Virus record (IMG/VR): IMGVR_UViG_3300005607_000414
Reading direction: 5' to 3' (one strand)
Length of the DNA: 64,000 nucleotides
DNA from: an uncultured virus (IMG/VR IMGVR_UViG_3300005607_000414)
Taxonomy: Duplodnaviria > Heunggongvirae > Uroviricota > Caudoviricetes
Positions 2,733-63,786 of the stretch are shown here, in pieces. The number at the start of each line of letters is the position of its first letter. Position 1 is the first letter of the stretch. The position numbers and the translations under genes are program-made. The notes beneath the pieces were generated by a model. It had not been told where the DNA came from. It saw nothing but the letters and a program-made list of their open reading frames with translations, and did no database searches.

Positions 2733-5159
2733 CTATTGCACATCAGCCACCTTCCCGTCCTGGAAAATCACCTTCATGTCTTTATAGATGTAGGTAATTT
2801 TCGGGCCGAGATTAACGATCCGCTCAGGCCGTCCGAGGAGATCCTCAACCTCTTTCGTGCTTTGGCCCAAAGAGATGGTCTTCGTCGATGCGGCTTGAGC
2901 CTCAGCATCCGACGCAATAACTTCCGCTATCATCGGCTTGAGTTCCGACAAGCTCATTCGGGGGAGGGACGCCTTCTCGAACTTGAACGCCAAATAGGCC
3001 TTGTAGCGCGTCTGCGTGGTCCTCCCGCCACGCTCACTGACCGGGAACGTATCGTAAGAAACGAAGAATAGTCCGACATGATCATCGCCGATATTCGTCT
3101 TCCAGAGGTAGACTTTTTCACCCGCCTTAAAAGGACGACTCGTCTTCTTGTTTTGAAGAAACGCCACGGCACCCTTCGGCGCAAGAATGCGCCCCCCCTC
3201 GACAGTGTTTTGGGTGAAAGTACCATCGGAGGCTAAATCGCCGGTGATGCCATCTTTTTTGAGGACGAATACGGTCCCTGGGTCTGTTATACGAAGCCGG
3301 TCCGTGGCTAAACGGGTGACCTTCCAGGACGACTCGATATCGTCCTTAAGCTTCCGCTTCCATCCGGCAGTATTGACGTCCGCGTCCTGTTCCCTCTCAA
3401 CCGGTGCTTTATCATCCTGTAACTTGGCTGCCACCTCCGGTGACGACTTCCCTGTGACACCGCCATTGGTTCTCTCAGCGGCTGTCGCCGTCACGGCTGT
3501 AGCCCCATGTTCCTTTTGATCGGGCACTCCGGACTTGGTGGCAGTGCCGTTGTCCTGAGAATCAGTGGTTGCCGAATTGGTATCCGCTTTCGCCCCGTCC
3601 TTCACACGAAAATCCCAGGCCAACGCACCGTAACCTGTCCACTCCTCACCTTTCTTCATGAACCGTGCCATCTCATCGCTGCTCCATTGAGCTTTGAGAG
3701 GCACGTTCTCGGTATAGGCTCCGGCCGGTGACTTCGTAAACACTCCGATCGCGTACTCACCGGGCACGAGGGGCGCCTTGGGCCGCAATATGAACGAGTT
3801 ATTCGGCCCTTTTTCAACGTCAGCCGCGATCGTCTTTTGTTCGACAGACAACTCCGTCCGTTCAACCCCGGGCTGCGTGTCGAACTTCTTCTGCTTTTTC
3901 GTTTTCATTGTGACCTTCCGCGACGTGACGATTCGGACAGCATCTGTGCCCATGACATCCAACTGGATCAAGACCGGCTGGACATCCGTGATGTTGGCAT
4001 CGCTTGGTATGTACTGATTTAGAGGCAGCACGAACTCCACAGGGCCTTGCTTGATCTCCACGACGGCTTTCGAGTCGCGCAGGAATTCAAACTCGAAGCC
4101 CCGGATCTCCGGGTTGCGCTTTAGGAAGGGAATCATCGTAAGGACCGCAACAGGATACGCGAAATAGCCGCCAAGCGGGATGCCGCTTGTCGCAATGCGG
4201 GCACCGATGTTTGCGGCCATGGTTGTCCCGACTTGCGTTAAGGCAATGTCCTTTGCAGCGTCTTTCGCATCCGCCGCCTTACTCTTGGAGAAGGCGTGCT
4301 GCTGCGGCCTTGGCGCGAGAGTAATCTGCCACGTGTCACCCTGCCGAGCGATAACTTTGCCGAGGCTGTTCTGAAAGCGCAGCAGTTCTGCGAGATCTTC
4401 CCTGTCTGATTCTTTTGCGATGTTGAAAGTGCCTCTCCTGATCCCATTAGCTCCTGCAACCTTGAGCTGCACCTCGCCCGAGAGTGCCCCGGCTGAAACC
4501 GACGCCGGGGTGAATTCAACCTGGGCACCGGCGTCCGTTGCCGCAGACAGCAGCATGCCCGCCCCCTGCTCGCGCAGTTCAACGCGGCCACTGTTCGCCG
4601 CACCGGAGCCAGATTGGAAGGCAATAGCGCCAGAGTAGGTGCCCAACGCGCTCTTCTGGAATACCATCCTGATCGCCGTTGGTTCGCCCTCGACGGTCAT
4701 CTGCCCCGCCCACGTACCGCTCAGTGCCGCCGCCGGACGAGTCGGCTCCGGCTGCGGCTTCTGAGGCTCCGGAGGCTTGACATCGGCGACAGCCATGCCG
4801 GACTTCTCCATCATCGCGCGGATGACCGATGCAGGTACCTTCTTGTTCTTCAACTCGATGATTGAGTCGGTGTCGAGTTGGAATTCCGCCTTCTCAGCAG
4901 ATTTGATCTTGGCGCATATCAGCGCCTCATCGAGCCCGGCATCGACCAATTTGATGACCGCCTGGTTATTGAGTACGTCAGGCTTGGGGGCCGTGGGCGC
5001 TGACTTCTTCGTAACCGCCTTCTTGGTGGGCGGCGAGGTCTTCTGGCCCGTCGCCTGGGTCTGCGAAAGTGCAGTGGTTGACAACATCCAGAAAAGGGCA
5101 ACCGCAATAACTGCGGCGAGGACCGATGACATTCGATTCGCAAAGTTGCGAGTGGACAT
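2733..5159 (-). CDS. large secreted multidomain protein
   Basis: Signal peptide (VLAAVIAVALFWMLSTTALSQ); LNNQAVIKLVDAGL..I.AKI domain; C-terminal ISLGQSTKEVEDLLGRP...YIYKDMKVIFQDGKVADVQ (SmpA/BamE-like); GGAAGGAG RBS before ATG 5159. Confidence 0.75.
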   Translation of the reverse strand: MSTRNFANRMSSVLAAVIAVALFWMLSTTALSQTQATGQKTSPPTKKAVTKKSAPTAPKPDVLNNQAVIKLVDAGLDEALICAKIKSAEKAEFQLDTDSIIELKNKKVPASVIRAMMEKSGMAVADVKPPEPQKPQPEPTRPAAALSGTWAGQMTVEGEPTAIRMVFQKSALGTYSGAIAFQSGSGAANSGRVELREQGAGMLLSAATDAGAQVEFTPASVSAGALSGEVQLKVAGANGIRRGTFNIAKESDREDLAELLRFQNSLGKVIARQGDTWQITLAPRPQQHAFSKSKAADAKDAAKDIALTQVGTTMAANIGARIATSGIPLGGYFAYPVAVLTMIPFLKRNPEIRGFEFEFLRDSKAVVEIKQGPVEFVLPLNQYIPSDANITDVQPVLIQLDVMGTDAVRIVTSRKVTMKTKKQKKFDTQPGVERTELSVEQKTIAADVEKGPNNSFILRPKAPLVPGEYAIGVFTKSPAGAYTENVPLKAQWSSDEMARFMKKGEEWTGYGALAWDFRVKDGAKADTNSATTDSQDNGTATKSGVPDQKEHGATAVTATAAERTNGGVTGKSSPEVAAKLQDDKAPVEREQDADVNTAGWKRKLKDDIESSWKVTRLATDRLRITDPGTVFVLKKDGITGDLASDGTFTQNTVEGGRILAPKGAVAFLQNKKTSRPFKAGEKVYLWKTNIGDDHVGLFFVSYDTFPVSERGGRTTQTRYKAYLAFKFEKASLPRMSLSELKPMIAEVIASDAEAQAASTKTISLGQSTKEVEDLLGRPERIVNLGPKITYIYKDMKVIFQDGKVADVQ

Positions 5160-10574: not shown

Positions 10575-11942
10575 CTACGCCACCGCTCCCTTCTGGATCT
10601 CGACCACGTTGGCCTTACGCTCCTTGATCGCGGCGCGGGCGATCCGTGCGCGCTTCCTCTGCGCCGCCAGCAGCGTCGTTACGGGTGGCTTCGTGCTATC
10701 CGTCTCCTCCGCAGCCTTGGCGCGCTTCTCCTGGATCTTGCGCGTCAACTCGTCCTGCCGTTGAATTCCGACGATGGTGTAATCGAGCGTCGTGGACACC
10801 TTCGAGTGGCCCGCGATCTTGCTGGCTTCGATGCTGCTGCCGCCCACGTCCTGCCGCCACGTGATGTTCGCGCGGCGCAGGGAGTGCGGGCCGAAGCCGG
10901 GAAAGTCGAGTCCGGTATCCTCGTCGGGCGCGCCGTCCGCGCGGATCGACCACGCCGCATCCTTCAGTGCCTTGCGGACGCCAGAGTCCCAACGGGGCAG
11001 GCTGAGATCCTCCTCCTGCGGGAAGACCCAATCGTTCGGCCCCTTGCGCTTCAGGCTGGCGATCCACTTCTGGTAGCGCGGGGTCAACGCGCCCAGCGTG
11101 AGGATGCGCTTGCTCTTGGCGGTTTTGGGCACGTCGATGTCGCCACGGCAGTTGCGCTGGTCGATCCGGATGGTTCCGTTCTTCAGATCGACATGCTTGA
11201 TCATCAGCCCCAGCGCTTCGGAAATGCGCGTCCCGGTATCGAGGCAGGTTTCGCAGATCAGCAGGTTCGGCTCTTCCAGTTGCGCGAGCACCTGCGCCGT
11301 CTCCTCCGGAGAGAGGATGCGCTTCTCGTACACCTCCCACTTCTTCGGGAGCTTCACCCACTTCATCGGGTTCGCGTATGAGCGCGGAATGATCTCCCAC
11401 TCCGTGGCCCTCGTGATGATTCCGCTCATCGCGTTCCGGAGGCCGCACATTCCGTGCCAGGAGGTGCTGACCTCCTGGAGCCAGTCCATCACGTCCTTGG
11501 CTTTCAGATCCTTGAGGCGCGCGTCCTTCCACTTCGGCAGGATGTAGCCGAGGGCCCAGGTGTACTTGGTCCTGGTGCCCACCGCGATCAGATGCTTGCC
11601 CGCCGCCACCTTGTCTACGTAATCGCGCTTCCACATCTCCGCGAGCGGGCCAAACTTGAACTCTCCGGGATCGGTCGGCGTGTCCTCCGGGTTCGGCTGC
11701 ATCGCTGCCTGCACCGTCGTCGTCGCCTTATTCAGGTCGGCCAGGAACTTATCGCGCTCCTCGCGCGCCTTTGTGATCGTCCATGCGTCCTTGCCCTTGC
11801 TCGGGCCAAGCGTCTTGAAAGCCCGTGTCGTCCGCACGGTGCCGTCCGGTTGGATCTCATCCTTCCGGTAGCGGAAGAACCAGTAGTATTCGCCTCGATC
11901 CTTCCGCTCATGTACTTCCGGATGCTGTACTCGCGTCTTCAA
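10575..11942 (-). CDS. int: tyrosine recombinase/phage integrase
   Basis: Catalytic set R (TGTRISE), K (VPKT), HxxR (HSLRR), H (AGH), Y (LDYT); likely TTG start at 11942 after GGAGG (ORF track starts 11993). Confidence 0.93.
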   Translation of the reverse strand: MKTRVQHPEVHERKDRGEYYWFFRYRKDEIQPDGTVRTTRAFKTLGPSKGKDAWTITKAREERDKFLADLNKATTTVQAAMQPNPEDTPTDPGEFKFGPLAEMWKRDYVDKVAAGKHLIAVGTRTKYTWALGYILPKWKDARLKDLKAKDVMDWLQEVSTSWHGMCGLRNAMSGIITRATEWEIIPRSYANPMKWVKLPKKWEVYEKRILSPEETAQVLAQLEEPNLLICETCLDTGTRISEALGLMIKHVDLKNGTIRIDQRNCRGDIDVPKTAKSKRILTLGALTPRYQKWIASLKRKGPNDWVFPQEEDLSLPRWDSGVRKALKDAAWSIRADGAPDEDTGLDFPGFGPHSLRRANITWRQDVGGSSIEASKIAGHSKVSTTLDYTIVGIQRQDELTRKIQEKRAKAAEETDSTKPPVTTLLAAQRKRARIARAAIKERKANVVEIQKGAVA

Positions 11943-11970
11943 TTGGCTGCCTCCAGTCAACAGCGCCCGG

Positions 11971-12000
11971 AGGTTACCTTCGGTGGAGTCCATAAAGCAA
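11971..12000 (-). promoter_or_regulatory. putative sigma70 promoter of integrase with TGGACTCCAC motif in the spacer
   Basis: TTGCTT-N18-TAACCT on minus strand. Confidence 0.45.
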
Positions 12001-17393: not shown

Positions 17394-18811
17394 GCCGCCT
17401 CCCGGAGGATGCGATCCACGTGGTCGATCCGCGCGCCGATCCAGTGCATGACCGGGACCGCCATCGAGTTCCCGATGGCCTTGTAGCGCGGGCCGTCCGG
17501 AGTCGCGCCCAGCCGCCGCGCTTCATCGAGGGAGATGCGGAGGTACCCCGCGACCTCCAGGATCTCGTCGGGCCGGAGCTTCTGGCGGTAGTTCGGCACC
17601 AGCGTCCAATCGTCGGGGAAGCCCTGCAACCGTTCGCACTCGCGCGGAGTCAGCCGCCGCACCGCGACCCACGACGCCACAAGCGGTGCGCCGTCGCCCT
17701 TGCCGGTCGATCCGGACTGCGCCTTCAGCGGTGGCGCGATCACATCCGGTGCACCGCGCCCGTTGCGCGCGAAGCGGGCCTCGAACACCATCGGCGTCGT
17801 GTTGCCGCCGTCCGTGGCCACGATGGGCGGCGCGACCTCGCGCGGCACGAAGCCGTCCTGCCCGCAGCCGCGGAAGGCGACCGCCAGTTGGCCTCCGGCG
17901 TTCGGGTGCGATTCGTCGTGGCCCATCGCCCGGAGCGTGGGCGCCACGTCCTCCGATGCGTCCGCGCCGTAATCCTTGCACGAGAATGCGACGGCCAGTG
18001 GGATGCCCTTGCCGGAGCCATCCTCGGTCGCGTCGAAGCCCTCGCCACGGAGAGTGTGCGCGACGAGGTTGTGGTACTCGCTACCGGACGGCCCACTGCC
18101 GCGCTTCGCCCACTTCGCGCTTACGGAGTGGCCGACGACGGCGGCGGGGAGGATGTGCCCCGCCTGTGCCTGTTTGGGATCGCCGCCACACGTTCCAAGG
18201 CTGTTCGCAGTAATGGCGGTAACGATCTCTTCCTTTTTTCGGCGCGGCGCAAGATCCCGGCGCAGGCTGTCGCACTCAAAAAGTACCGCAGCGGAAGCCT
18301 GCCAGCCTCCAGTACATCCAACAACGAAGACCCGACGACGACGCTGGGGCACTCCGAAGAACTGAGCGTCGAGAATGCGGTACGCCAGCCCATACCCGAA
18401 CTGAGCCAGCGTCCCGAGGACGGTTCCAAACGTCCGTCCTCCGTCAATCGACAGGACACCGGGGACGTTTTCCCACACGAACCAGCGGGGGCGAAGGCGC
18501 TTAACAGCGTGGAGATACTCCAGCGTGAGATTGCCACGCGCGTCATCCAATCCAAGCCGGTGACCGGCGAGGGAGAAGGACTGGCAGGGGGTTCCTCCCA
18601 CGAGAAGGTCAACTGGAGTTGTTCCGATGCGCCGGAGCCAGTGCGTCCGGATCGCCGTGAAGTCGCCAAGGTTACGAACCTCCGGAAAACGGTGCGCGAG
18701 GACCGCCCGCGCGAACGGGTCGATCTCCGCGAACCACGCCGGAGTCCAGCCCAAGGGATGCCACGCGACGGTGGCCGCTTCGATGCCGGAGCAGACGGAC
18801 CCGTAGATCAT
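17390..18811 (-). CDS. DNA (cytosine-5)-methyltransferase
   Basis: SVCSGIEA (I), GGTPCQSFS (IV), WENVPG (VI), PQRRRRVF (VIII), RRLTPRECERLQGFP (IX), YKAIGNS (X). Confidence 0.95.
   Translation of the reverse strand: MIYGSVCSGIEAATVAWHPLGWTPAWFAEIDPFARAVLAHRFPEVRNLGDFTAIRTHWLRRIGTTPVDLLVGGTPCQSFSLAGHRLGLDDARGNLTLEYLHAVKRLRPRWFVWENVPGVLSIDGGRTFGTVLGTLAQFGYGLAYRILDAQFFGVPQRRRRVFVVGCTGGWQASAAVLFECDSLRRDLAPRRKKEEIVTAITANSLGTCGGDPKQAQAGHILPAAVVGHSVSAKWAKRGSGPSGSEYHNLVAHTLRGEGFDATEDGSGKGIPLAVAFSCKDYGADASEDVAPTLRAMGHDESHPNAGGQLAVAFRGCGQDGFVPREVAPPIVATDGGNTTPMVFEARFARNGRGAPDVIAPPLKAQSGSTGKGDGAPLVASWVAVRRLTPRECERLQGFPDDWTLVPNYRQKLRPDEILEVAGYLRISLDEARRLGATPDGPRYKAIGNSMAVPVMHWIGARIDHVDRILREAA
18121..18669 (-). 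CDS. nested out-of-frame ORF in C5 MTase (M.EcoHK31I beta-polypeptide-like)
   Basis: SSLLDVLE...RYFLSATACAGILRRAEKRKRSLPPLLRTAL motif in alternative frame; start uncertain. Confidence 0.5.
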   Translation of the reverse strand: MATSRRSGRTGSGASEQLQLTFSWEEPPASPSPSPVTGLDWMTRVAISRWSISTLLSAFAPAGSCGKTSPVSCRLTEDGRLEPSSGRWLSSGMGWRTAFSTLSSSECPSVVVGSSLLDVLEAGRLPLRYFLSATACAGILRRAEKRKRSLPPLLRTALERVAAIPNRHRRGTSSPPPSSATP

Positions 18812-19751: not shown

Positions 19752-20246
19752 CTATTTGCCCTCCGCGCGGCGATACACGGTGCATTCGCGTCCGCGCCCC
19801 TGCTTGACAACTTCGAGGTCGCCGCCCTTGGCCATCGACGTGAGCGCGAGGCTGATGCTGGCTTTGCGCTGGCGTTCGAACTCCGGATGCTGGTACTTCG
19901 GATCTCCGTGGCCCCGGTGCGAGATGCTGGCGGTGTAGATCTCGTGGACCGTGAACGTTTGGCCCGCCGCGACCTGCTTCACGTACTCGCGGACCCGCTG
20001 CATCCCGACGTAGTGCTTCTCGCCGCCGTCGCCCTTGTTGCCGTTCGGGACCGCCACACCGCTCTGCACCGCCAGCCCGACCACCACGTCCTTCATCAAC
20101 TCCTGCGTGGTGGGATCTTCGAGCAGGTAGTACATCGACTCCAGCTTGGCGATCTTGCCTTCCTCCTCTTCGGCCTGCCGGAGGTACACGTTCCGCTGTT
20201 CTTGCGTCTGCGAGATGCGTTCAAGGATTCCTTCGAGCACGTCCAT
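19752..20246 (-). CDS. hypothetical protein (N-terminal coiled coil, possible C-terminal winged helix)
   Basis: TGATG-coupled to the Tas-like gene; SISLALTSMAKGGDLEVVKQGRGRECTVYR resembles a wHTH wing. Confidence 0.6.
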   Translation of the reverse strand: MDVLEGILERISQTQEQRNVYLRQAEEEEGKIAKLESMYYLLEDPTTQELMKDVVVGLAVQSGVAVPNGNKGDGGEKHYVGMQRVREYVKQVAAGQTFTVHEIYTASISHRGHGDPKYQHPEFERQRKASISLALTSMAKGGDLEVVKQGRGRECTVYRRAEGK

Positions 20247-21091
20247 CACGCCACCTCCTGCATCGGGAAGTTCGGTGGCTGGATCATGTCGGCGTGGCCG
20301 AGGATCGAGATGACGTACGGCTTGGGCGGCGGCGTGCCGGTGGCCAGCGTCCACGCGACATGGTGGTAGTGGGCCAGAAACAACTTCACGACCCAGCGCT
20401 TCGCCCGCGCGTGGATGTGGGCCGGCGGGAGCTTCCCGGCAGCGTACGCCTGGTACGCATCCGTGCTCTTGCCGATGTTGAACCGCTCCAGTTTGTAAGG
20501 GGCCTGGTCCGCGAACTTACCGGCCTCGTTGCGCTCCTGCTCGATCTGCTTCCTCTGGAGATACAACTGGCCGTAGAAGTCGTCCGGGCGTCCGGACACC
20601 TTCACAAAGGATTCCCCGATCTTCCAGCAGAGGCACTTCAGGCCCGCGTTCCACGGGCGGCGTTCACCCTTCTTCCACTCGACGGTGGGATCGAGGCCCG
20701 CGAACCGCCAGATACGCCCGACCGTCGCGCAGCGGGAGATGTCGATGTGCGCCGCCAGCCCCGCCGAAATGACGGGGCCGATGCCGACAATCGACTTCGC
20801 CCACCGCGCGGCCGGAAGCCCGTCCGTCCACGAGTTCAACGCACGCCTGATCTGCTTCTCGACCGTCTCGTTCTGCTCGAACAGCCAGCGCAGGACCTCG
20901 TGCGGCTCCTTCGACTCTGCGAGTGCGCGCACCTGATTGGCCGCAGCCTTGCGGTGTTCCTGCATCGCGTAATAGGCATCGACCAGATACCGCGCCTCAT
21001 CGATGCTCAGACTGACTGCGGCCTTTACAAGGTCGCGCTGGAGACGCCGAACAACATCGGGTGCCCCGCTCGTATCGGTGGTTTGCTCCAC
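20246..21091 (-). CDS. TasA-like Nop/IS110-Tnp-domain RNA-binding protein without nuclease domain
   Basis: YYAMQEHRKAAANQ coiled coil; SIVGIGPVISAGL; IWRFAGLDP; HARAKRWVVKLFL; no DEDD RuvC or HNH; no catalytic SG serine; adjacent 36-nt dual-repeat array. Confidence 0.8.
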   Translation of the reverse strand: MEQTTDTSGAPDVVRRLQRDLVKAAVSLSIDEARYLVDAYYAMQEHRKAAANQVRALAESKEPHEVLRWLFEQNETVEKQIRRALNSWTDGLPAARWAKSIVGIGPVISAGLAAHIDISRCATVGRIWRFAGLDPTVEWKKGERRPWNAGLKCLCWKIGESFVKVSGRPDDFYGQLYLQRKQIEQERNEAGKFADQAPYKLERFNIGKSTDAYQAYAAGKLPPAHIHARAKRWVVKLFLAHYHHVAWTLATGTPPPKPYVISILGHADMIQPPNFPMQEVA

Positions 21092-21117
21092 TGTGTTTCC
21101 CTTCCTTGGTGCTGCTG

Positions 21118-21265
21118 TTACTCGCTGGTGTCCTGGCGCGCTCGACCTTTATGGATCGCTCCATGACCTTGGTTCTCTCCGGCGGCATGGCTCGCGCGTA
21201 ATAAGTGGCACTCCCGGTCCCGATGGCTCGCTCAACTTGCCTGGTGCTCTCGACCTTCTTGGCTG
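21118..21265 (-). ncRNA. TIGR-like array 1 (about four 36-nt dual-spacer units)
   Basis: TGG (CCA on minus) at 21134, 21152, 21170, 21188, 21206, 21224, 21242, 21260, exactly 18 nt apart, with alternating AGCGAGCCA-type and AGAGNACCA-type repeats. Confidence 0.85.
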
Positions 21266-37764: not shown

Positions 37765-38074
37765 TGATTTCCTGCTTGGGTTGGAACTCGATGTGGATGT
37801 GGTCCACTTCCAGGAGCACGTCGAAGTCCTCGCCCAAACACGTCTTGATCTGCGCGATGAGCTTCGGAACGTCGGCGGGCGCCACGTCGCGCGTGCGGAG
37901 GTCGATGGCCGCGCCCGCATAGTGGAGCGAGCCAGCCATGTGCTTTCCGTCCACGCAGGCGGTGATCATCAGGTCGTGGCCCGCCGCCTTGTAGACTTCC
38001 ATCGCGGCAACCGCCGCGAGCAGGATCTCCGGACGCATGCCGGTGATCCGCACACCAGCCTTGAGAGAGAGCAT
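37757..38074 (-). CDS. peptidase M15 family endolysin
   Basis: SLHYAGAAIDL and DHIHIE Zn-binding motifs; TAATG coupling. Confidence 0.85.
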   Translation of the reverse strand: MLSLKAGVRITGMRPEILLAAVAAMEVYKAAGHDLMITACVDGKHMAGSLHYAGAAIDLRTRDVAPADVPKLIAQIKTCLGEDFDVLLEVDHIHIEFQPKQEING

Positions 38075-54114: not shown

Positions 54115-56052
54115 TCACATCCCGAAGCGCCCGCTCACCCGCCGGCCACGGCGCGCGGCTGGCGCGGGTGCTTTCGTTGGGGGCGGTGCCTGTACCTGCG
54201 GCGCGGGCCGTGGCGCCGACGCGACCGGCAGGCCCATGCGATCCGCGACGATCTTCCAGTGCTTCTCCTGGAAGCGATCCAGCCCGACGCGCGCCGCCGC
54301 CGCACGGGCGTACACACGGCAGTCCAGAGCCTCGTTGCGGTCGCGCATCTTCTGCCACTCCAGTTTGCGGTAGCCCTTGACGAGCTTCGCCACCAACTGT
54401 TCAGCGGTGATCTGCTTGAAGTACTCCTCGCTGTAGCGCGGGAAGTGGCAGTATCCGGGCGGGAACGGGATTCCCTGTTCGAGATCCTCGTCGGTCGGAC
54501 GTTCAAGCCGGAGCCATCGGTACAACTCCTCCTTCGCCATTCCGGAGTTGACCGGCCAGACTTTAACGCCCCGCTTCAATTTTACGCCCAGCGGTCCAAC
54601 TTCGATCGGAGAAGCAGCACCGATAATCGCGGGAGCGCGCGAGTCGCCTTTGATCACCAGGACGCGATGGCCCTGCCGCCGCGCCCATTCGTACACCTCG
54701 TTGGTCGCGTAACCGGAGTCCACGGCCAACTGAATGATCGGCAACTCCAGTCCGGAAACCGTTGTGAACGTCTCGTTCAGCAGGCCGGTGAGTTTCTCCC
54801 ATACCTGCGGGCGCGCGGTGTCGCCTTCGAAGACCCGGTAGTCAATCGACCACGATTCCTTACCGCGCCCCCACGCGACGACCTCGACCTCGATGCGATC
54901 CCGCTGAACGTCCGCTCCGGCCGTAACGAAGATACCGCCGCGAGGCACGAGGCCGATCTTATACGCCTCGCGCCGGTCGTACAGGATCTTCCAGTCCGGA
55001 GCCTCACCCAGCAGCGTCCACGTTTCGCCCAGCACGGTGTTCACGAAGACCTGAAGCAGCGACGGGTTCTTCTGCGCCTGCTCGAACTGCTTGGCGGCGT
55101 CTCCCCACGAGAACCAGCCGACCGGCGAGTACATGCTCGACAAGTGGAAGCCCGCCGTCTTGCCGTCTCCCTTGGCGGTCGCACGCCACTGGCCGCGCGG
55201 CAGCATCCACTGCTTCTGGTGGTTCTGAATCTCCTGGCCGCAATGCTCGCAGATGTACACCGCCTTCTCCGCTTCGCCCTTGGGCCACCGGAGTTGCGGA
55301 AACTTCAAGACCTGGAACTCCCGGCAGATCGGGCACGGAACGGCGAAGTACCGCTTGTCCGACTCCTCGAACGCCGCCTCGATCCGCGACATGCCGGTGA
55401 TCTTCGGCGTCGAGACGAGGAACACCTTGCGGCGGGCGAACGTGCGGGTGCGCGCCATCGCCAGATTGATCGGGTCGCCCTCGCCGTCCACATCGCCGGG
55501 ATACCCGTCCACCTCGTCCAGGAACAGGTAACGCGCCGCCATCGAGCGCAGGCCGATCGCGCTATTCGCGCCGGTCATCACCAGGACGCCGCCCGGAAAC
55601 TCCTTCGCCAGCACCGTGTTTCCGGAGTCGCGCGAGCGCGGGTCGTGGACGAGGTTTCGGAGCACCTCCGACTCCTCGATCAGGGGATCGACCCTCTGCT
55701 TCGAGTTGCGCTTGGCCATCTCGACGGTCGGCTGCACCGCCATCATCGGGCCTGGCGCCTGATGGATCACGTACCCGATCCAATTGTTACCGCACTCGGT
55801 CCCGCCGATCTGCGCGCCCTTCATGAACACCGTGCGCTCGATCAGGCTGGTCGGCGACAGGCAGTCCATGATCTCGCGCAGGTACGGCGTCCGGTCGGTG
55901 CGCCACTGTCCCGGTTCGCTCGACGCCCGTTGCGAGAGCGTCCGATACTTGTCGGCCCACTGCGAGATCGTGAGGAACGGATCGGGACGCGCGCCAGCAG
56001 CCGCCGACGCCCGGATGATCGCTTCAGTTGACGAGGCTGTCTGCGTAATCAT
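54115..56052 (-). CDS. terminase large subunit, GpA family
   Basis: TPYLREIMD, KGAQIGGTE, LFLDEVDGY, STP, GADVQ, RNEALDCRVYA. Confidence 0.96.
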   Translation of the reverse strand: MITQTASSTEAIIRASAAAGARPDPFLTISQWADKYRTLSQRASSEPGQWRTDRTPYLREIMDCLSPTSLIERTVFMKGAQIGGTECGNNWIGYVIHQAPGPMMAVQPTVEMAKRNSKQRVDPLIEESEVLRNLVHDPRSRDSGNTVLAKEFPGGVLVMTGANSAIGLRSMAARYLFLDEVDGYPGDVDGEGDPINLAMARTRTFARRKVFLVSTPKITGMSRIEAAFEESDKRYFAVPCPICREFQVLKFPQLRWPKGEAEKAVYICEHCGQEIQNHQKQWMLPRGQWRATAKGDGKTAGFHLSSMYSPVGWFSWGDAAKQFEQAQKNPSLLQVFVNTVLGETWTLLGEAPDWKILYDRREAYKIGLVPRGGIFVTAGADVQRDRIEVEVVAWGRGKESWSIDYRVFEGDTARPQVWEKLTGLLNETFTTVSGLELPIIQLAVDSGYATNEVYEWARRQGHRVLVIKGDSRAPAIIGAASPIEVGPLGVKLKRGVKVWPVNSGMAKEELYRWLRLERPTDEDLEQGIPFPPGYCHFPRYSEEYFKQITAEQLVAKLVKGYRKLEWQKMRDRNEALDCRVYARAAAARVGLDRFQEKHWKIVADRMGLPVASAPRPAPQVQAPPPTKAPAPAARRGRRVSGRFGM

Positions 56053-56566: not shown

Positions 56567-56589
56567 CGGAATTCTTTTTGAACTTTCCG

Positions 56590-56628
56590 CTTTACTTCCC
56601 GCGCGACCGGAGTGATGAATCGTCATGC
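56590..56628 (+). promoter_or_regulatory. conserved moron promoter, copy 1
   Basis: CTTTACTTCCCGCGCGACCGGAGTGATGAATCGTCATGC, similar to copies at 57154 and 63133. Confidence 0.65.
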
Positions 56629-56667
56629 GCGGACGACAAGCCGCCAGAAAGGAAAGCAGATACGACC

Positions 56668-57153: not shown

Positions 57154-57220
57154 GGCGCGATTATCCCCTTGATCTTCCGCGCGACCGAAGGGATGAATGG
57201 TCGTGCAAGGAGATAAGCAG
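57154..57220 (+). promoter_or_regulatory. conserved moron promoter and RBS, copy 2
   Basis: GGCGCGATTATCCCCTTGATCTTCCGCGCGACCGAAGGGATGAATGGTCGTGCAAGGAGATAAGCAG-ATG. Confidence 0.7.
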
Positions 57221-57544
57221 ATGGCCAGAGCCAGGAAACAGACCAAAGAGACGACGCCAGGATTTGCGATCAAGATCAACCCGCAAACGGAACTCGGCCT
57301 CGCGATGCTGATCGCGGAAACGGAAGACGGTCACTACGAGCCGGTGGCGGTAGTGTCCTCCGTATCGGAGGCGCGCGAGATTGCCGCCAGCGACTTCGCC
57401 CGCCGCCTCAAGGAAGTAGGGATGGGGTGCGAGGACGTAACCTGCCCCGCGCGGTACGCGATCTGGGCGCAGGGTATTGGCGGCGAGTACAAGCCACTCC
57501 GCGAATACGAGATCGACGGCACCGCCCCGCAGATCGAATGGTAG
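57221..57544 (+). CDS. hypothetical moron protein
   Basis: AAGGAG RBS, own promoter and terminator. Confidence 0.75.
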   Translation: MARARKQTKETTPGFAIKINPQTELGLAMLIAETEDGHYEPVAVVSSVSEAREIAASDFARRLKEVGMGCEDVTCPARYAIWAQGIGGEYKPLREYEIDGTAPQIEW

Positions 57545-58910: not shown

Positions 58911-59447
58911 TTAGGCCGCAGTCTTCGGCTGGGCCTGGTTGACCACGTTCGCAATCGACGTGGTGGCGGTGGCGAGCGCCTGGACGATCTGCTGCAACGT
59001 CGCCAGGACCGGCGTGATGGTGGCGTCCACCTGCTTGGCGACCGCCGCCGCGACAGCCTGCGCGTCCACGCCGACGCCAGCCGCGCTCACGTCCGTGGCG
59101 CGATTGGCGGGCACGGCGCCAGCCGTCAGGTTCGAACCCGCGCCGCGCGAGACGGGGTTCAACTCGTCGGTCCAGAGGGCATCGGCGGCAACGTCGGCGT
59201 GTTTGATGGCCTGCTTCGCCACCATGTTGCTCGTCTCCACGGCGTTCTGGAGCGCCTGGAGAGCGACGTTCTGGATCTGATCGAACTGAATCTGCGAACG
59301 GCGCGCGATCAGCAGATCGAGATCCTGGTAAGCGTCATACGTGCGCTTGGTGTTGGCTGCGGTGAGTTCGGAATGCGCTTTGAAAAACTCATCCGTTCCG
59401 GTTTCGAATTCACGCTCGCCCTGGTTGGGCGTGGCGACTTCAGGCAT
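58911..59447 (-). CDS. Ala/Gln/Thr-rich helical hypothetical protein
   Basis: 178 aa, strong AAGGAG RBS, between the two MTases. Confidence 0.75.
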   Translation of the reverse strand: MPEVATPNQGEREFETGTDEFFKAHSELTAANTKRTYDAYQDLDLLIARRSQIQFDQIQNVALQALQNAVETSNMVAKQAIKHADVAADALWTDELNPVSRGAGSNLTAGAVPANRATDVSAAGVGVDAQAVAAAVAKQVDATITPVLATLQQIVQALATATTSIANVVNQAQPKTAA

Positions 59448-59473: not shown

Positions 59474-59552
59474 AAGAACGCTCCCCAATCACGGTTCTCT
59501 CCGTTGCTATGGCTCGCTCGGACGGCTCGATGCCGCCGCTTTCATTGGCTTA
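59474..59552 (-). ncRNA. TIGR-like mini-array 2 (two 36-nt units, partly degenerate)
   Basis: Repeat blocks at 59474, 59492, 59510, 59528, 59546 (18-nt period) including exact GAGCGAGCCA and GAGAGAACCG. Confidence 0.7.
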
Positions 59553-61151: not shown

Positions 61152-61394
61152 ATGGCAAGAAGCAACCACATCTCCGTCGAGATCGAGGCGAAGTTTGGCA
61201 GCACTTTTCAGGAAGAAGTGGCGATGCGCATGCTGCCCAAGTACATCAACGCCTGGAAAGCGTTCTTCCTGGAAAAGCACTCCAAGAACGCCATCGAGTT
61301 CCGAATCACGAACGTCGAGCACATCACGCCCATGAGAGAACCTGCGCCCCGGAACAGGCAACGGCGGTCCGATAGACTGCCGTGCTCCCGCTAA
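61152..61394 (+). CDS. small hypothetical moron protein
   Basis: MARSNHISVEIE...; TTGCAG-N17-CACAAT promoter at 61113-61141 just upstream. Confidence 0.5.
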   Translation: MARSNHISVEIEAKFGSTFQEEVAMRMLPKYINAWKAFFLEKHSKNAIEFRITNVEHITPMREPAPRNRQRRSDRLPCSR

Positions 61395-61537
61395 ACGCCG
61401 CCACGTCGCCCACATCTCGCCCCGTTCGCGCCGGAGCGCGGCAGGTGGAGGCGTTGGGCCAAGAGACGGGCGGCGGCGCAACGGGGCGCGCGGGGGCGCG
61501 AACGCCGCCAGCCGTACCCGACCACCTCACTTTTTTT

Positions 61538-61600
61538 GTGACGCTGGCGAAATGGTGCAATCGCGGAACGCGCCGGAGATTTTGCCCCGGTAGTACCTAA
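61538..61600 (-). other. putative lambda-like cos (packaging) region
   Basis: AGGTACTACCGG...GGCGCGTTCCGCG...TTTCGCCAGCG resembles the lambda cosQ-cosN-I2 layout; upstream of packaging genes. Confidence 0.4.
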
Positions 61601-61712
61601 AGTGGAGCGAGAATTGCATGGTCGGCCGGCGCTTCGCGTTCATTCTGACCGCTGTGGTGGTCGGTGAGTTGGGTGCGCCAACGCCACCGACCCGTTGCCG
61701 GATTGATGGCGT

Positions 61713-61803
61713 TGGCCTCTCGAAACAGTGGTTCAAATCCAGTCCTTGGATAGTCGCTCGGCTCGCATGGTTCTCTCAAGGACTGTGGCTCGCTCAACTG
61801 TTT
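61713..61803 (-). ncRNA. TIGR-like mini-array 3 (one clean unit plus degenerate, self-complementary continuation)
   Basis: GAGCGAGCCA-CAGTCCTT-GAGAGAACCA-TGCGAGCC-GAGCGACT; repeat blocks at 61750, 61768, 61786. Confidence 0.72.
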
Positions 61804-62051
61804 GATAAGCCGCACGTGCAACGGAACAACTGGCAATCGCAGACTGGCAGTGGCGTGCGCTGCGGACCAGGGCCGTGCGTGAGCATGTGCTGGCGGTACG
61901 CCTTGCGCGTGCCGAACTCCTGCCCGCACGCGCCGCAGATATCGCCAGCCCACGGGCCGTCGTCGTCGTTCGAGGACTCAGCACGATCTGGAAACGACTC
62001 TTCGCTGTAATCGTCCTCAACGCAAGGCCCTGAAAGTGATTGGATCAACAC
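61794..62051 (-). CDS. C2H2 zinc-finger small protein
   Basis: CGACGQEFGTRKAYRQHMLTH = C-x2-C-x3-F-x8-H-x3-H; overlaps stop of upstream ORF. Confidence 0.55.
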   Translation of the reverse strand: MLIQSLSGPCVEDDYSEESFPDRAESSNDDDGPWAGDICGACGQEFGTRKAYRQHMLTHGPGPQRTPLPVCDCQLFRCTCGLSNS

Positions 62052-62601: not shown

Positions 62602-62678
62602 TGGTGGGCCCGACAGAACTCGAATCTGTGACCTTCTGCGTGTCAAGCAGACGCTCTAACCAACTGAGCTACGGGCCC
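62602..62678 (-). tRNA. tRNA-Val(GAC)
   Basis: GGGCCCGTAGCTCAGTTGGTTAGAGCGTCTGCTT-GAC-ACGCAGAAGGTCACAGATTCGAGTTCTGTCGGGCCCACCA, 77 nt cloverleaf with encoded CCA; TGnTACGAT promoter upstream. Confidence 0.95.
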
Positions 62679-62730
62679 GCAAGACTCATCGTACCAAACT
62701 TGAAGAGGACTGACCAAACAGCATCGAGGA

Positions 62731-62798: not shown

Positions 62799-63137
62799 CT
62801 ATCGGCGGTTGACCGGCGTCTTCTCGTAATCCTCCAGCGTACGCGTCCCGTGGACTTCGGCGTCGTGCTTCTCAGCCCAGTTGGTGAGCTCGGCTGCGGA
62901 TTTGAACATCCGGCGCCACGGCTTGTTGGCGAGGCCCTTCACTCCATACGCCTCGATCTGGTTCAGCCTGATTACGGTCGCCGGAGCCAGATCCGACTCG
63001 CTGTAATAACCGGCGTGTTTGCCCCTGATCGCAATCGCGTAAAAGGAGCCAGAAGGAGCAACCTCCGTGACGACGCCACGCTCGCCCTGGTGCTCTCCGT
63101 ACTCGATCAGAACTTTGTCGCCTTCCTGGTATGCCAT
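62799..63137 (-). CDS. moron protein with KOW/SH3-like N-terminus
   Basis: YQEGDKVLIEYGEHQGERGVVTEV; AAGGAG RBS, own promoter and terminator. Confidence 0.75.
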   Translation of the reverse strand: MAYQEGDKVLIEYGEHQGERGVVTEVAPSGSFYAIAIRGKHAGYYSESDLAPATVIRLNQIEAYGVKGLANKPWRRMFKSAAELTNWAEKHDAEVHGTRTLEDYEKTPVNRR

Positions 63138-63204
63138 CTGCCTATCTCCTTGCACCACGATTCATCACTCCGGTTGGCGGGAAAGGCAAGAAGATAAGCG
63201 CGCC
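63133..63204 (-). promoter_or_regulatory. conserved moron promoter and RBS, copy 3
   Basis: GGCGCGCTTATCTTCTTGCCTTTCCCGCCAACCGGAGTGATGAATCGTGGTGCAAGGAGATAGGCAG-ATG. Confidence 0.7.
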
Positions 63205-63467
63205 GATCACGATCTTTTTTCGCCAGCCACACGGCACGTGGGCGCGCCCACGCGTTGGCTGGCACCACACGTCCACCGGCCTGGCTCCGGCCAAACGTGC
63301 GCGCCCCCTGCGCGACGGGTGGCGCGTTTTTCCTTCGTCCATATATAGGAGTCGGAAAATCTTGTCCTTGGCGCACGGCGTGGCGAAAGGACAGGACGGC
63401 GTCTGGAAACCCTCCCATAGCTACCATCTTCCCAACTCTGTGATTCTGGCTGGGTTATACTGGCGTA

Positions 63468-63786
63468 ACGTGGAGTCCACGTATGGAATGGTGACAGGCT
63501 GGTGGTTGGGCAGTGTGGACTCCAGTTGGACTCCACAGGGGTAGACGACCACGCCTAAGTGATAGTAGAATATAGAGATAGTGGGTCGGGGCCTCTTCCT
63601 TGACACGTATAAAATATCAATCACTTACAGACACCCCTACTGAAAACACAAGAGTTACACGTTTTCGATTTGGACCCCACACGGACCCCGGCATAGCGAT
63701 TTAGGCCTCTTCCGTGCGCGTTTGGACCCCGGTTGGACCCCACGACCATAGAGTTCTTCCGCGATACATAAGTGTTCCGGACCCCA
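63468..63786. repeat. cluster of eight (T/C)GGACYCC(AC) motifs flanking an AT-rich core
   Basis: Palindrome ACGTGGA-G-TCCACGT at 63468; copies at 63516, 63527, 63671, 63682, 63723, 63734, 63778. Confidence 0.75.

Follow-up and report, generated by a model that had tools for sequence, protein, structure and literature searches.

A predicted two-unit TIGR mini-array far from tasA in a prophage and a possible origin of its self-complementarity

Why should a TIGR unit that lies ~40 kb from the Tas gene of its own prophage have spacers that base-pair with the sequence directly downstream? The question arises at positions 61713 to 61803 of the window, the 64,000-nucleotide stretch of an uncultured virus (IMG/VR record IMGVR_UViG_3300005607_000414) that was analyzed here. 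The first-pass annotation, made from the letters of the DNA, had described this locus as a third TIGR-like unit folded on itself and had proposed a sequestered or switchable guide, a box C/D-like stem-loop variant, or an intermediate in array formation.

The mini-array and its prophage setting

The window is a GC-rich prophage with an integrase gene (10575-11993), tail and head genes, a gene for a gpA-type large terminase (54115-56052), and two ParB-methylase genes. The product of the minus-strand open reading frame at 20246-21091 matched the NCBIfam model NF052498 ("TIGR-Tas system RNA-guided endonuclease") with an E value of 5.9e-64 and a score of 216 bits (cutoff, 100), and just a weak IS110-type match was obtained with Pfam. 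When the protein was compared with solved structures, it aligned solely to residues 126-303 of TasH and to residues 144-261 of a 331-aa chain; the aligned region of TasH is its coiled-coil/Nop part, and the N-terminal parts of both TasH and the 331-aa chain were unmatched. Because the alignment covers only the coiled-coil/Nop part, the protein, which has 281 aa with a coiled coil and a Nop domain and neither RuvC nor HNH, is a TasA, a TIGR-associated protein without a nuclease domain.

The array that adjoins tasA is array 1 (21116-21233, minus strand), which lies directly upstream of the gene and has three units of 10-nt repeats and 8-nt spacers. Array 2 (59479-59519, minus strand) has one unit (TAGCAACG / TGATTGGG) and is located between the methylase gene and the next gene. 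The word AGCGAGCCA was found without mismatches at five places in the window, three of which (21224, 59510, and 61786) are the first repeats of arrays; another, at 37926, is on the plus strand. The pattern GAGCGAGCCA-N8-GAGAGAACC occurred three times in the 8.2-Mb genome, in each case in this prophage, and its reversed control did not occur. Elsewhere, stretches with the same repeat pair numbered 82 in viral contigs and 16 in genome contigs, and they include arrays of up to 26 units. With this repeat pair and a Tas protein (NF052498) in one prophage, and with repeats letter-identical to those of array 1 at the locus of interest, the general setting given by the first-pass annotation, a TIGR unit that shares its repeats with array 1 in a Tas-encoding prophage, was right.

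On the minus strand, 61712-61795 is predicted to be a two-unit, dual-repeat TIGR mini-array. It is placed at the 3' end of a small operon that consists of a gene for a 120-aa protein and a small C2H2-type open reading frame (61794-62051, minus strand; 85 aa; zf-C2H2_4, E 7e-4, below the cutoff). The stop codon of the latter (TGA, 61794-61796) overlaps the first edge repeat, E1 (GAGCGAGCCA, repeat family D4; 61786-61795), and AAACAGT (61797-61803) lies in its last codons. E1 is followed by spacer A1 (CAGTCCTT; 61778-61785), loop repeat L1 (GAGAGAACCA; 61768-61777), and spacer B1 (TGCGAGCC; 61760-61767); E1 and L1 are each letter-identical to an array 1 repeat. The second unit comprises a degenerate 13-nt edge repeat, E2 (GAGCGACTATCCA; 61747-61759), spacer A2 (AGGACTGG; 61739-61746), a degenerate loop repeat, L2 (ATTTGAACCA; 61729-61738), and spacer B2 (CTGTTTC; 61722-61728). 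The array ends with a truncated or degenerate terminal edge repeat, E3 (GAGAGGCCAA; 61712-61721), and then a conserved terminal hairpin (GCCAACGCCA ... TGGCGTTGGC; 61677-61716), all on the minus strand.

The repeats and spacers that had been recognized at first stood, but not their division into 9 and 9 nt; 10-nt repeats with 8-nt spacers, a 36-nt unit, fit all three arrays. The lengths are 10, 8, 10, and 8 nt in unit 1 and 13, 8, 10, and 7 nt in the degenerate unit 2. All five repeats (E1, L1, E2, L2, and E3) end in CCA, the box C end, and the three CCA motifs noted in the first pass, at 61747, 61729, and 61713, proved to be the box C ends of E2, L2, and E3. At box D, E1, L1, E2, and E3 begin with GAG and L2 follows a G with A, compared to UG in TasR arrays.

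The locus resembles the dual-repeat arrays with TasA in the text of Faure et al. 2025 (Science, PMC12045711) in its alternating edge and loop repeats ending in CCA, its 36-nt unit, its truncated terminal edge repeat followed by a hairpin, and the nuclease-less Nop-domain Tas protein in a prophage; its 10-nt repeats are like those of the tasParB-tasA loci of that study. Unlike the arrays described there, which the paper and TIGRFinder sought in the neighborhood of tas loci, it lies at a distance of 40 kb from tasA and has only two units, one of which has decayed repeats, conserved spacers, and a complementary neighbor unit.

Distant units were also seen in a provirus (genome G063, loci L161 and L169) whose Tas protein is 75% identical to that of the window. 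Its units (contig positions 47695-47730, 49320-49387, and 49646-49672) lie ~37-39 kb from tas; one comes after the stop codon of the methylase gene, an array of two units borders the start codon of this gene, and a further unit begins at the stop codon of an upstream open reading frame.

Conservation of the array in sister lineages

Syntenic relatives were collected via the methylase gene, a conserved-core pattern, and alignment, and fell into eight lineages: the window (with an identical metagenome copy, L298); L330; L168/L263/L303; L164/L165/L209; L266; L267; L261/L307; and L270-272. The sister lineages derive from metagenomes, in which the conserved-core pattern (18 fixed bases) gave 75 matches, mostly by chance, with ~10 true homologues. 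A DNA search of 60 related genomes returned only two paralogous prophages of the window's own genome, both without the C2H2 open reading frame and the units; a DNA search of a phage collection returned methylase matches only, and a search of viral contigs with the C2H2 protein gave one weak locus, which was left out. Contigs of four DNA runs that were compared with the window yielded no usable variant of the array.

The gene order common to the eight lineages is the 120-aa gene, the C2H2 open reading frame in some, the array, a conserved block, and the methylase gene. Homologues of the C2H2 open reading frame precede the array in L168, L266, and L330, and the frame is absent from L164, L267, and L270. 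The downstream arm of the hairpin, which had been proposed to be a target or decoy, turned out to be the second TIGR unit (E2-A2-L2-B2-E3), with spacers that are kept in all eight lineages. AGGACTG in A2 is invariant in 8/8, and CTGT in B2 is also invariant, with the form CTGTTTCG in five of the eight. The interiors of E2 and L2 vary between lineages, and the CCA ends are kept in all; E2 has 9- to 10-nt forms in other lineages (e.g., GTGCGAGCCA and GAGCGATCCA), and L2 is intact in L261 and L270 (GAGAGCACCA). The spacers of unit 1 vary between lineages: A1 is the same in L330 and L298 and differs in the six other lineages, and B1 in L330 is AGCGAGCC. As judged from these alignments, unit 2 is the conserved part of the array and unit 1 is lineage specific.

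The terminal hairpin has 18 pairs, 5 of which are changed on both sides among six lineages. It is followed by a U-run in two of the six sequences (L267 and L261) and not in the window. A conserved terminal hairpin fits the array ends described in the text of Faure et al. 2025 (PMC12045711).

In most lineages (loci L266, L168, L261, and L270), spacer B1 (CAAGGACT-like) is nearly a direct copy of CA plus A2 and A1 (TTCTGTTC-like) resembles B2, so that unit 1 has the look of a copy of unit 2 that has been shifted and swapped. Downstream of the array, the block at 61530-61600 (TAGGTACTACCGGG ... CGGCGCGTTCCGCGAT) is kept in many relatives, including some without TIGR units, and the T-run terminator of the plus-strand gene at 61152-61394 adjoins it.

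The self-complementary fold and how it may have arisen

The letters and coordinates of the repeats, inverted matches, and CCA motifs in the first-pass annotation were all correct. The word CAGTCCTTG (61777-61785) has a perfect 9-nt reverse complement at 61740-61748, so that A1 and the combination of A2 with its preceding CA are the 5' and 3' arms of an inner stem; AAACAGT has a perfect 7-nt reverse complement at 61723-61729, and B2 is the 3' arm of this outer stem. The resulting long hairpin is a real fold in the window sequence. The minus-strand RNA of 61700-61815 had a predicted energy of -37.4 kcal/mol (z score, -3.57), with none of 200 shuffles equally good, and a 98-nt cut of the array region had a z score of -4.37, compared to +0.39 for the plus strand of 61700-61815. 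Perfect inverted repeats of 9 nt whose loops span 3-40 nt number 52 in the whole window (shuffle mean, 22), and the nested 9+7 form is represented by a single hairpin, that at this locus (mean per shuffled window, 0.43; maximum, 2; 30 shuffles). Once the inner stem is given, the chance expectation for the outer stem alone is ~2%. The fold is thus improbable mainly because it is placed exactly on a TIGR unit.

One explanation is that the fold sequesters or switches the conserved guide in cis: the spacers of unit 2 would be paired upstream, the AAACAGT flank with B2 and A1 with A2, with E1 facing L2 as an internal loop, and loading of that guide into Tas, or its processing, would be delayed or gated by this pairing. 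The strength of the fold in the window is consistent with such a role, as are the coverage of both unit 2 spacers in the right order and spacing and the retention of the inner stem in L330; it also accounts for the outer stem. However, the fold is absent in six of the eight lineages, all of which still keep unit 2. Across the homologous 98 nt, z scores were -1.08 in L330, the closest relative, where the fold is weak, and -0.58 to +0.86 in the other six, and the outer arm of L330 (GAAGAGT) carries two changes that give one mismatch and one wobble, without compensation. Lack of conservation of the complementarity, one of the refuting outcomes named in the first-pass annotation, was thus observed. 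The comparison also covered 98 units that end arrays of this repeat family elsewhere: none was followed within 70 nt by an 8/8 complement of spacer A and two were followed by a 7/8 complement, and spacer B gave the same result. A sequestering fold also gives no reason for a further feature, that B1 copies positions 2-9 of the edge repeat in exact register. Since the hairpin is lineage specific and shows no compensatory change, selection for sequestering is considered unlikely, with a regulatory fold particular to this lineage being a live rival about as probable as plain decay of the array, and what stands of the earlier proposal is the fold in the window rather than its comparative support.

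Nor does the locus resemble the stem-loop class of TIGR units beyond its general outline. Like the stem-loop units in the text of Faure et al. 2025 (PMC12045711), Xu et al. 2026 (bioRxiv 10.64898/2026.09.09.750476), and Guan et al. 2026 (bioRxiv 10.64898/2026.08.11.744272), it has a hairpin that encloses repeats and spacers with a box C/D-like outline. In those units, the palindromic flanks pair, the spacers are left unpaired between box C and box D, and CUU is at the base of the stem, whereas in the window the spacers themselves form the stems (A1 with A2 and the flank with B2) and the fold is not conserved. Furthermore, the window Tas protein goes with a dual-repeat array, array 1, unlike the stem-loop systems. 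An intermediate in array formation may still be represented here, because spacer B of unit 1 copies an edge repeat.

In published descriptions, the two spacers of a TIGR guide pair with opposite strands of neighboring stretches of DNA, spacer A with one strand and spacer B with its complement, and gaps of ≤2 bp are tolerated by TasR. The breaks have 3' overhangs of 8 nt and fall 5' of the target base that pairs with base 5 of the spacer; the unwinding junction is where the first paired base of the guide is located (Guan et al. 2026, bioRxiv 10.64898/2026.08.11.744272). The target geometry used here, 5'-A.rc(B)-3' with zero gap (rc, reverse complement), was derived from the last three of these printed statements; one sentence in Faure et al. 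2025 (PMC12045711), with the words "cut 3' to," disagrees with the derived strand order. In this geometry, the two-strand 16-mer of unit 1, B1 followed by rc(A1), is TGCGAGCC.AAGGACTG. It matched the E2/A2 junction at 16 of 16 positions with a gap of 0 in L164, L165, and L209, at 15 in L266, and at 14 in L168/L303, L267, and L270/271/272, compared to 12 of 16 at the window's own E2/A2 junction. In 33,095 nt of nonredundant sister DNA, with ≤1 mismatch, there were two matches in the canonical geometry versus 1, 0, and 1 in the three other geometries, and 3 of 500 shuffled guides matched sister DNA.

These matches suggest, with a probability that we put at roughly 0.5, that the self-complementarity is best read as that of a guide written against its neighbor's DNA as carried by sibling phages. 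A1 is complementary to CA plus AGGACT(G) at the E2/A2 junction and B1 copies the edge repeat, so that under the two-strand rule unit 1 would be a guide directed at this junction of unit 2 in the form that it has in the sister phages. The resident copy would escape this guide because its E2 has CTAT instead of G. The RNA hairpin would then be a by-product, because a guide against a neighboring guide gene necessarily complements the transcript of that neighbor. Given an A1 complementary to A2 and a B1 that copies the edge repeat, the unit 1 match is a trivial consequence, and both of these features could have other origins; the 7-nt outer stem is left unexplained by a guide-target relation. Two edge mismatches abolish editing by TasR in yeast, according to the published text, and with such low mismatch tolerance the 14/16 matches may be inert. 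Owing to the degeneracy of E2 and L2, processing may fail for unit 2 and even for unit 1.

The same degeneracy (E2, with its 13 nt, and L2) would be expected of a decaying array, a relic with degenerating repeats and no guide use in which the inverted matches were made by template switching or inter-repeat recombination, and in which B1 would be a misplaced edge repeat. The 40 kb between the array and tasA, the lack of any 0-mismatch canonical target for six window guides in the 8.2-Mb host genome, and the lack of general enrichment of nearby targets in the repeat family are consistent with decay. However, the unit 2 spacers and all CCA ends are kept in eight lineages while the flanks and repeat interiors vary, the terminal hairpin covaries, the relative with the 75%-identical Tas protein keeps distal units at homologous places, and an invariant 16-mer beside tRNA-Val matches unit 2 in four lineages; decay without guide use is accordingly regarded as improbable. 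A terminator or RNA-stability hairpin of the 120-aa/C2H2 operon, unrelated to guides, would suit the position directly after a stop codon and at a convergent gene junction, but neither stem is followed by a U-run (the sequences after the stems are GAUUUGAACC and UCGAGAGG), a consensus scan called no terminator in 61700-61810, and the covarying hairpin able to play this role is the next one, at 61677-61716, which makes it a very unlikely source of the fold. Chance, or the remnant of a tRNA-derived attachment site, is given as little credence. A nested 9+7 hairpin is not rare in shuffled windows, at the frequency given above, and the plus strand of L2 contains a word resembling a tRNA T-loop (GGTTCAAATCC, at 61729-61739); but the location coincides exactly with a TIGR unit, and GGTTCAAATCC is the reverse complement of a degenerate loop repeat. 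When it was considered as part of a tRNA, ARAGORN and Rfam found only the tRNA-Val at 62602-62678. Because there was no tRNA or Rfam match and the word varies between lineages, this explanation is largely refuted. A search for attachment-site repeats between the prophage ends found none longer than 17 nt and none at the tRNA.

Other guide-target pairs and the tRNA-Val site

A candidate two-strand target of the conserved unit 2, AGGACTGACCAAACAG (62706-62721), lies 27 nt upstream of a tRNA-Val(GAC) gene (62602-62678, minus strand; ARAGORN and Rfam). The site matched the window guide at 14 of 16 positions and the guides of L266 and L164 at 15 of 16. It is identical and at the same position beside tRNA-Val in L266, L261, L270, and L271, with flanks that vary. 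Upstream of tRNA-Val in the related-genome loci surveyed, the site was missing, as it was beside the other two tRNA-Val genes in the window's own genome (best, 6 to 10 mismatches), and the tRNA-Val copy beside a sibling prophage (contig C94) shares just the 23 nt next to the tRNA. Because the site is missing at other tRNA-Val loci, it is most likely that the site and the tRNA gene are both phage sequences; the tRNA-Val flank also differs from that in a same-genus genome, so that the tRNA-Val is probably phage borne. By eye, the site overlaps a weak -35 element (TTGGTCA, 17 nt, TACGAT), and a promoter scan called no promoter for tRNA-Val. Two different prophages of this one genome have a tRNA-Val(GAC) gene beside them, and over the gene and 23 nt of upstream sequence (62602-62701; C94 near 18626-18725) the two copies are 99% identical.

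Array 2 gave a comparable pair. Its guide is 60 nt upstream of the gene at 58911-59447 and matched codons 4-9 of this gene at 15 of 16 positions in four sister loci without the array, versus 13 of 16 in the window's own imperfect copy (59422-59437, minus strand). The two extra differences in the self target are synonymous (GCC and AAC), and one is at spacer position 5. In sister DNA, other geometries gave no matches for this guide, and 2 of 500 shuffles matched. Unit 1 of L266 matched the A2-L2 part of unit 2 in L330 at 15 of 16 positions with a 1-nt gap, and its own copy was unmatched. Similarly, unit 0 of L261 matched the end of the 120-aa gene at 15 of 16 positions in L270/271 and at 13 of 16 in its own lineage.

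With 24 guides, 260 kb, and ≤2 mismatches, there were 67 canonical versus 20 mirror-geometry matches, many of them nonindependent. However, a survey of 955 guides of the repeat family against 1.47 Mb with ≤1 mismatch found no enrichment (85 canonical matches versus 78, 75, and 60 in the controls), and exact matches in this survey came from 2 guides in the canonical geometry versus 1, 5, and 0 in the controls. Therefore, the signal is confined to this phage family and to few independent events. In the host genome, where the six window guides had no canonical target without mismatches, ≤2-mismatch matches numbered 1 to 103 per guide and geometry; since the counts were alike in both geometries, these matches are at chance level, the site at 62706 excepted. 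Targets of the three array 1 guides were found neither in the host genome nor in sister DNA. A guide from the array of another contig, locus L106, has a 16/16 two-strand match in two siblings of the window phage, at L113:9665 and L138:9489, where the site is ~340-510 nt upstream of tas; this match is not significant alone. An unrelated viral array at locus L017 (4819-4848 and near 4457) has a spacer identical to A1 (CAGTCCTT) together with AGGACTTG, which may be chance.

A wider reading of these pairs is possible, although we advance it tentatively and hold it with some doubt: mini-arrays scattered far from tasA would combine a conserved guide that binds the phage's own DNA upstream of tRNA-Val with lineage-specific guides against sibling alleles. 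The site of the unit 2 guide, just upstream of tRNA-Val, would be a self-regulatory TasA operator. The lineage-specific guides would target sibling alleles of the loci that adjoin the arrays, including the sibling's conserved guide gene, and the carrier's own copy of the target would bear mismatches at or near the seed. Beyond the observed anatomy, conservation, and matches, we infer from sequence that the array RNAs would be loaded by Tas, that TasA would bind the sites, and that repression or interference between sibling phages would follow.

Self-targeting or regulatory CRISPR guides are known, as are phage-borne CRISPR arrays aimed at rival elements, in which guides on a mobile element match its relatives and the element's own copy is shielded by mismatches, as here. 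The TIGR locus differs from CRISPR in its protein family, in its split guides of 8 plus 8 nt that read both strands, and in having no PAM and no expected cleavage. In reporter assays, TasA repressed transcription (Xu et al. 2026, bioRxiv 10.64898/2026.09.09.750476). The window is similar to the TasA and dead-TasR repressors of that study in its nuclease-less effector and in the matches of its guides, which in one case are to a site that neighbors a promoter-proximal region (upstream of tRNA-Val) and in the other to the beginning of a coding region (array 2). The text of that study describes reprogrammed guides on reporters and on cysG in Escherichia coli and gives no natural target.

Natural TIGR targets are described as hard to identify (Faure et al. 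2025, PMC12045711), and the discussion of Xu et al. 2026 (bioRxiv 10.64898/2026.09.09.750476) states that they cannot yet be determined; the texts of both papers from the discovering laboratory treat the natural targets and the origin of the spacers as unknown. In the text of the literature searched, neither natural protospacers nor arrays remote from tas were reported. If the pairs described here are true, they would be the first natural TIGR protospacers and would hint at close relatives as the source of spacers, or as what spacers are selected against; the decay of the unit 2 repeats would then represent escape changes in an arms race over a guide gene. The locus provides pairs that can be tested, namely, a conserved guide with an invariant cis site and three guides that fit siblings better than self. 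If these pairs hold, the role of TasA would be repression inside the phage and interference between sibling phages, the natural target geometry would be fixed, and array finders limited to the neighborhood of tas would miss functional units. If they fail, the locus is still a clear example of TIGR unit decay.

Two other sets of repeated sequences were seen in this part of the prophage. Three copies (75-79% alike, one inverted) of a 48- to 72-nt element, at 56586-56633, 57154-57225, and 63133-63204, lie just upstream of three small genes and may be a shared promoter or leader. Clusters of the words GGACTCC and GGACCCC are present at 63460-63760 and in locus L232 near 1430-1500, with similar words between two tandem tRNA-Val genes of a same-genus genome and after a tRNA-Val gene 4.8 kb to the left of the window. 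It is possible that these clusters are integrase or replication sites that mark the borders of elements.
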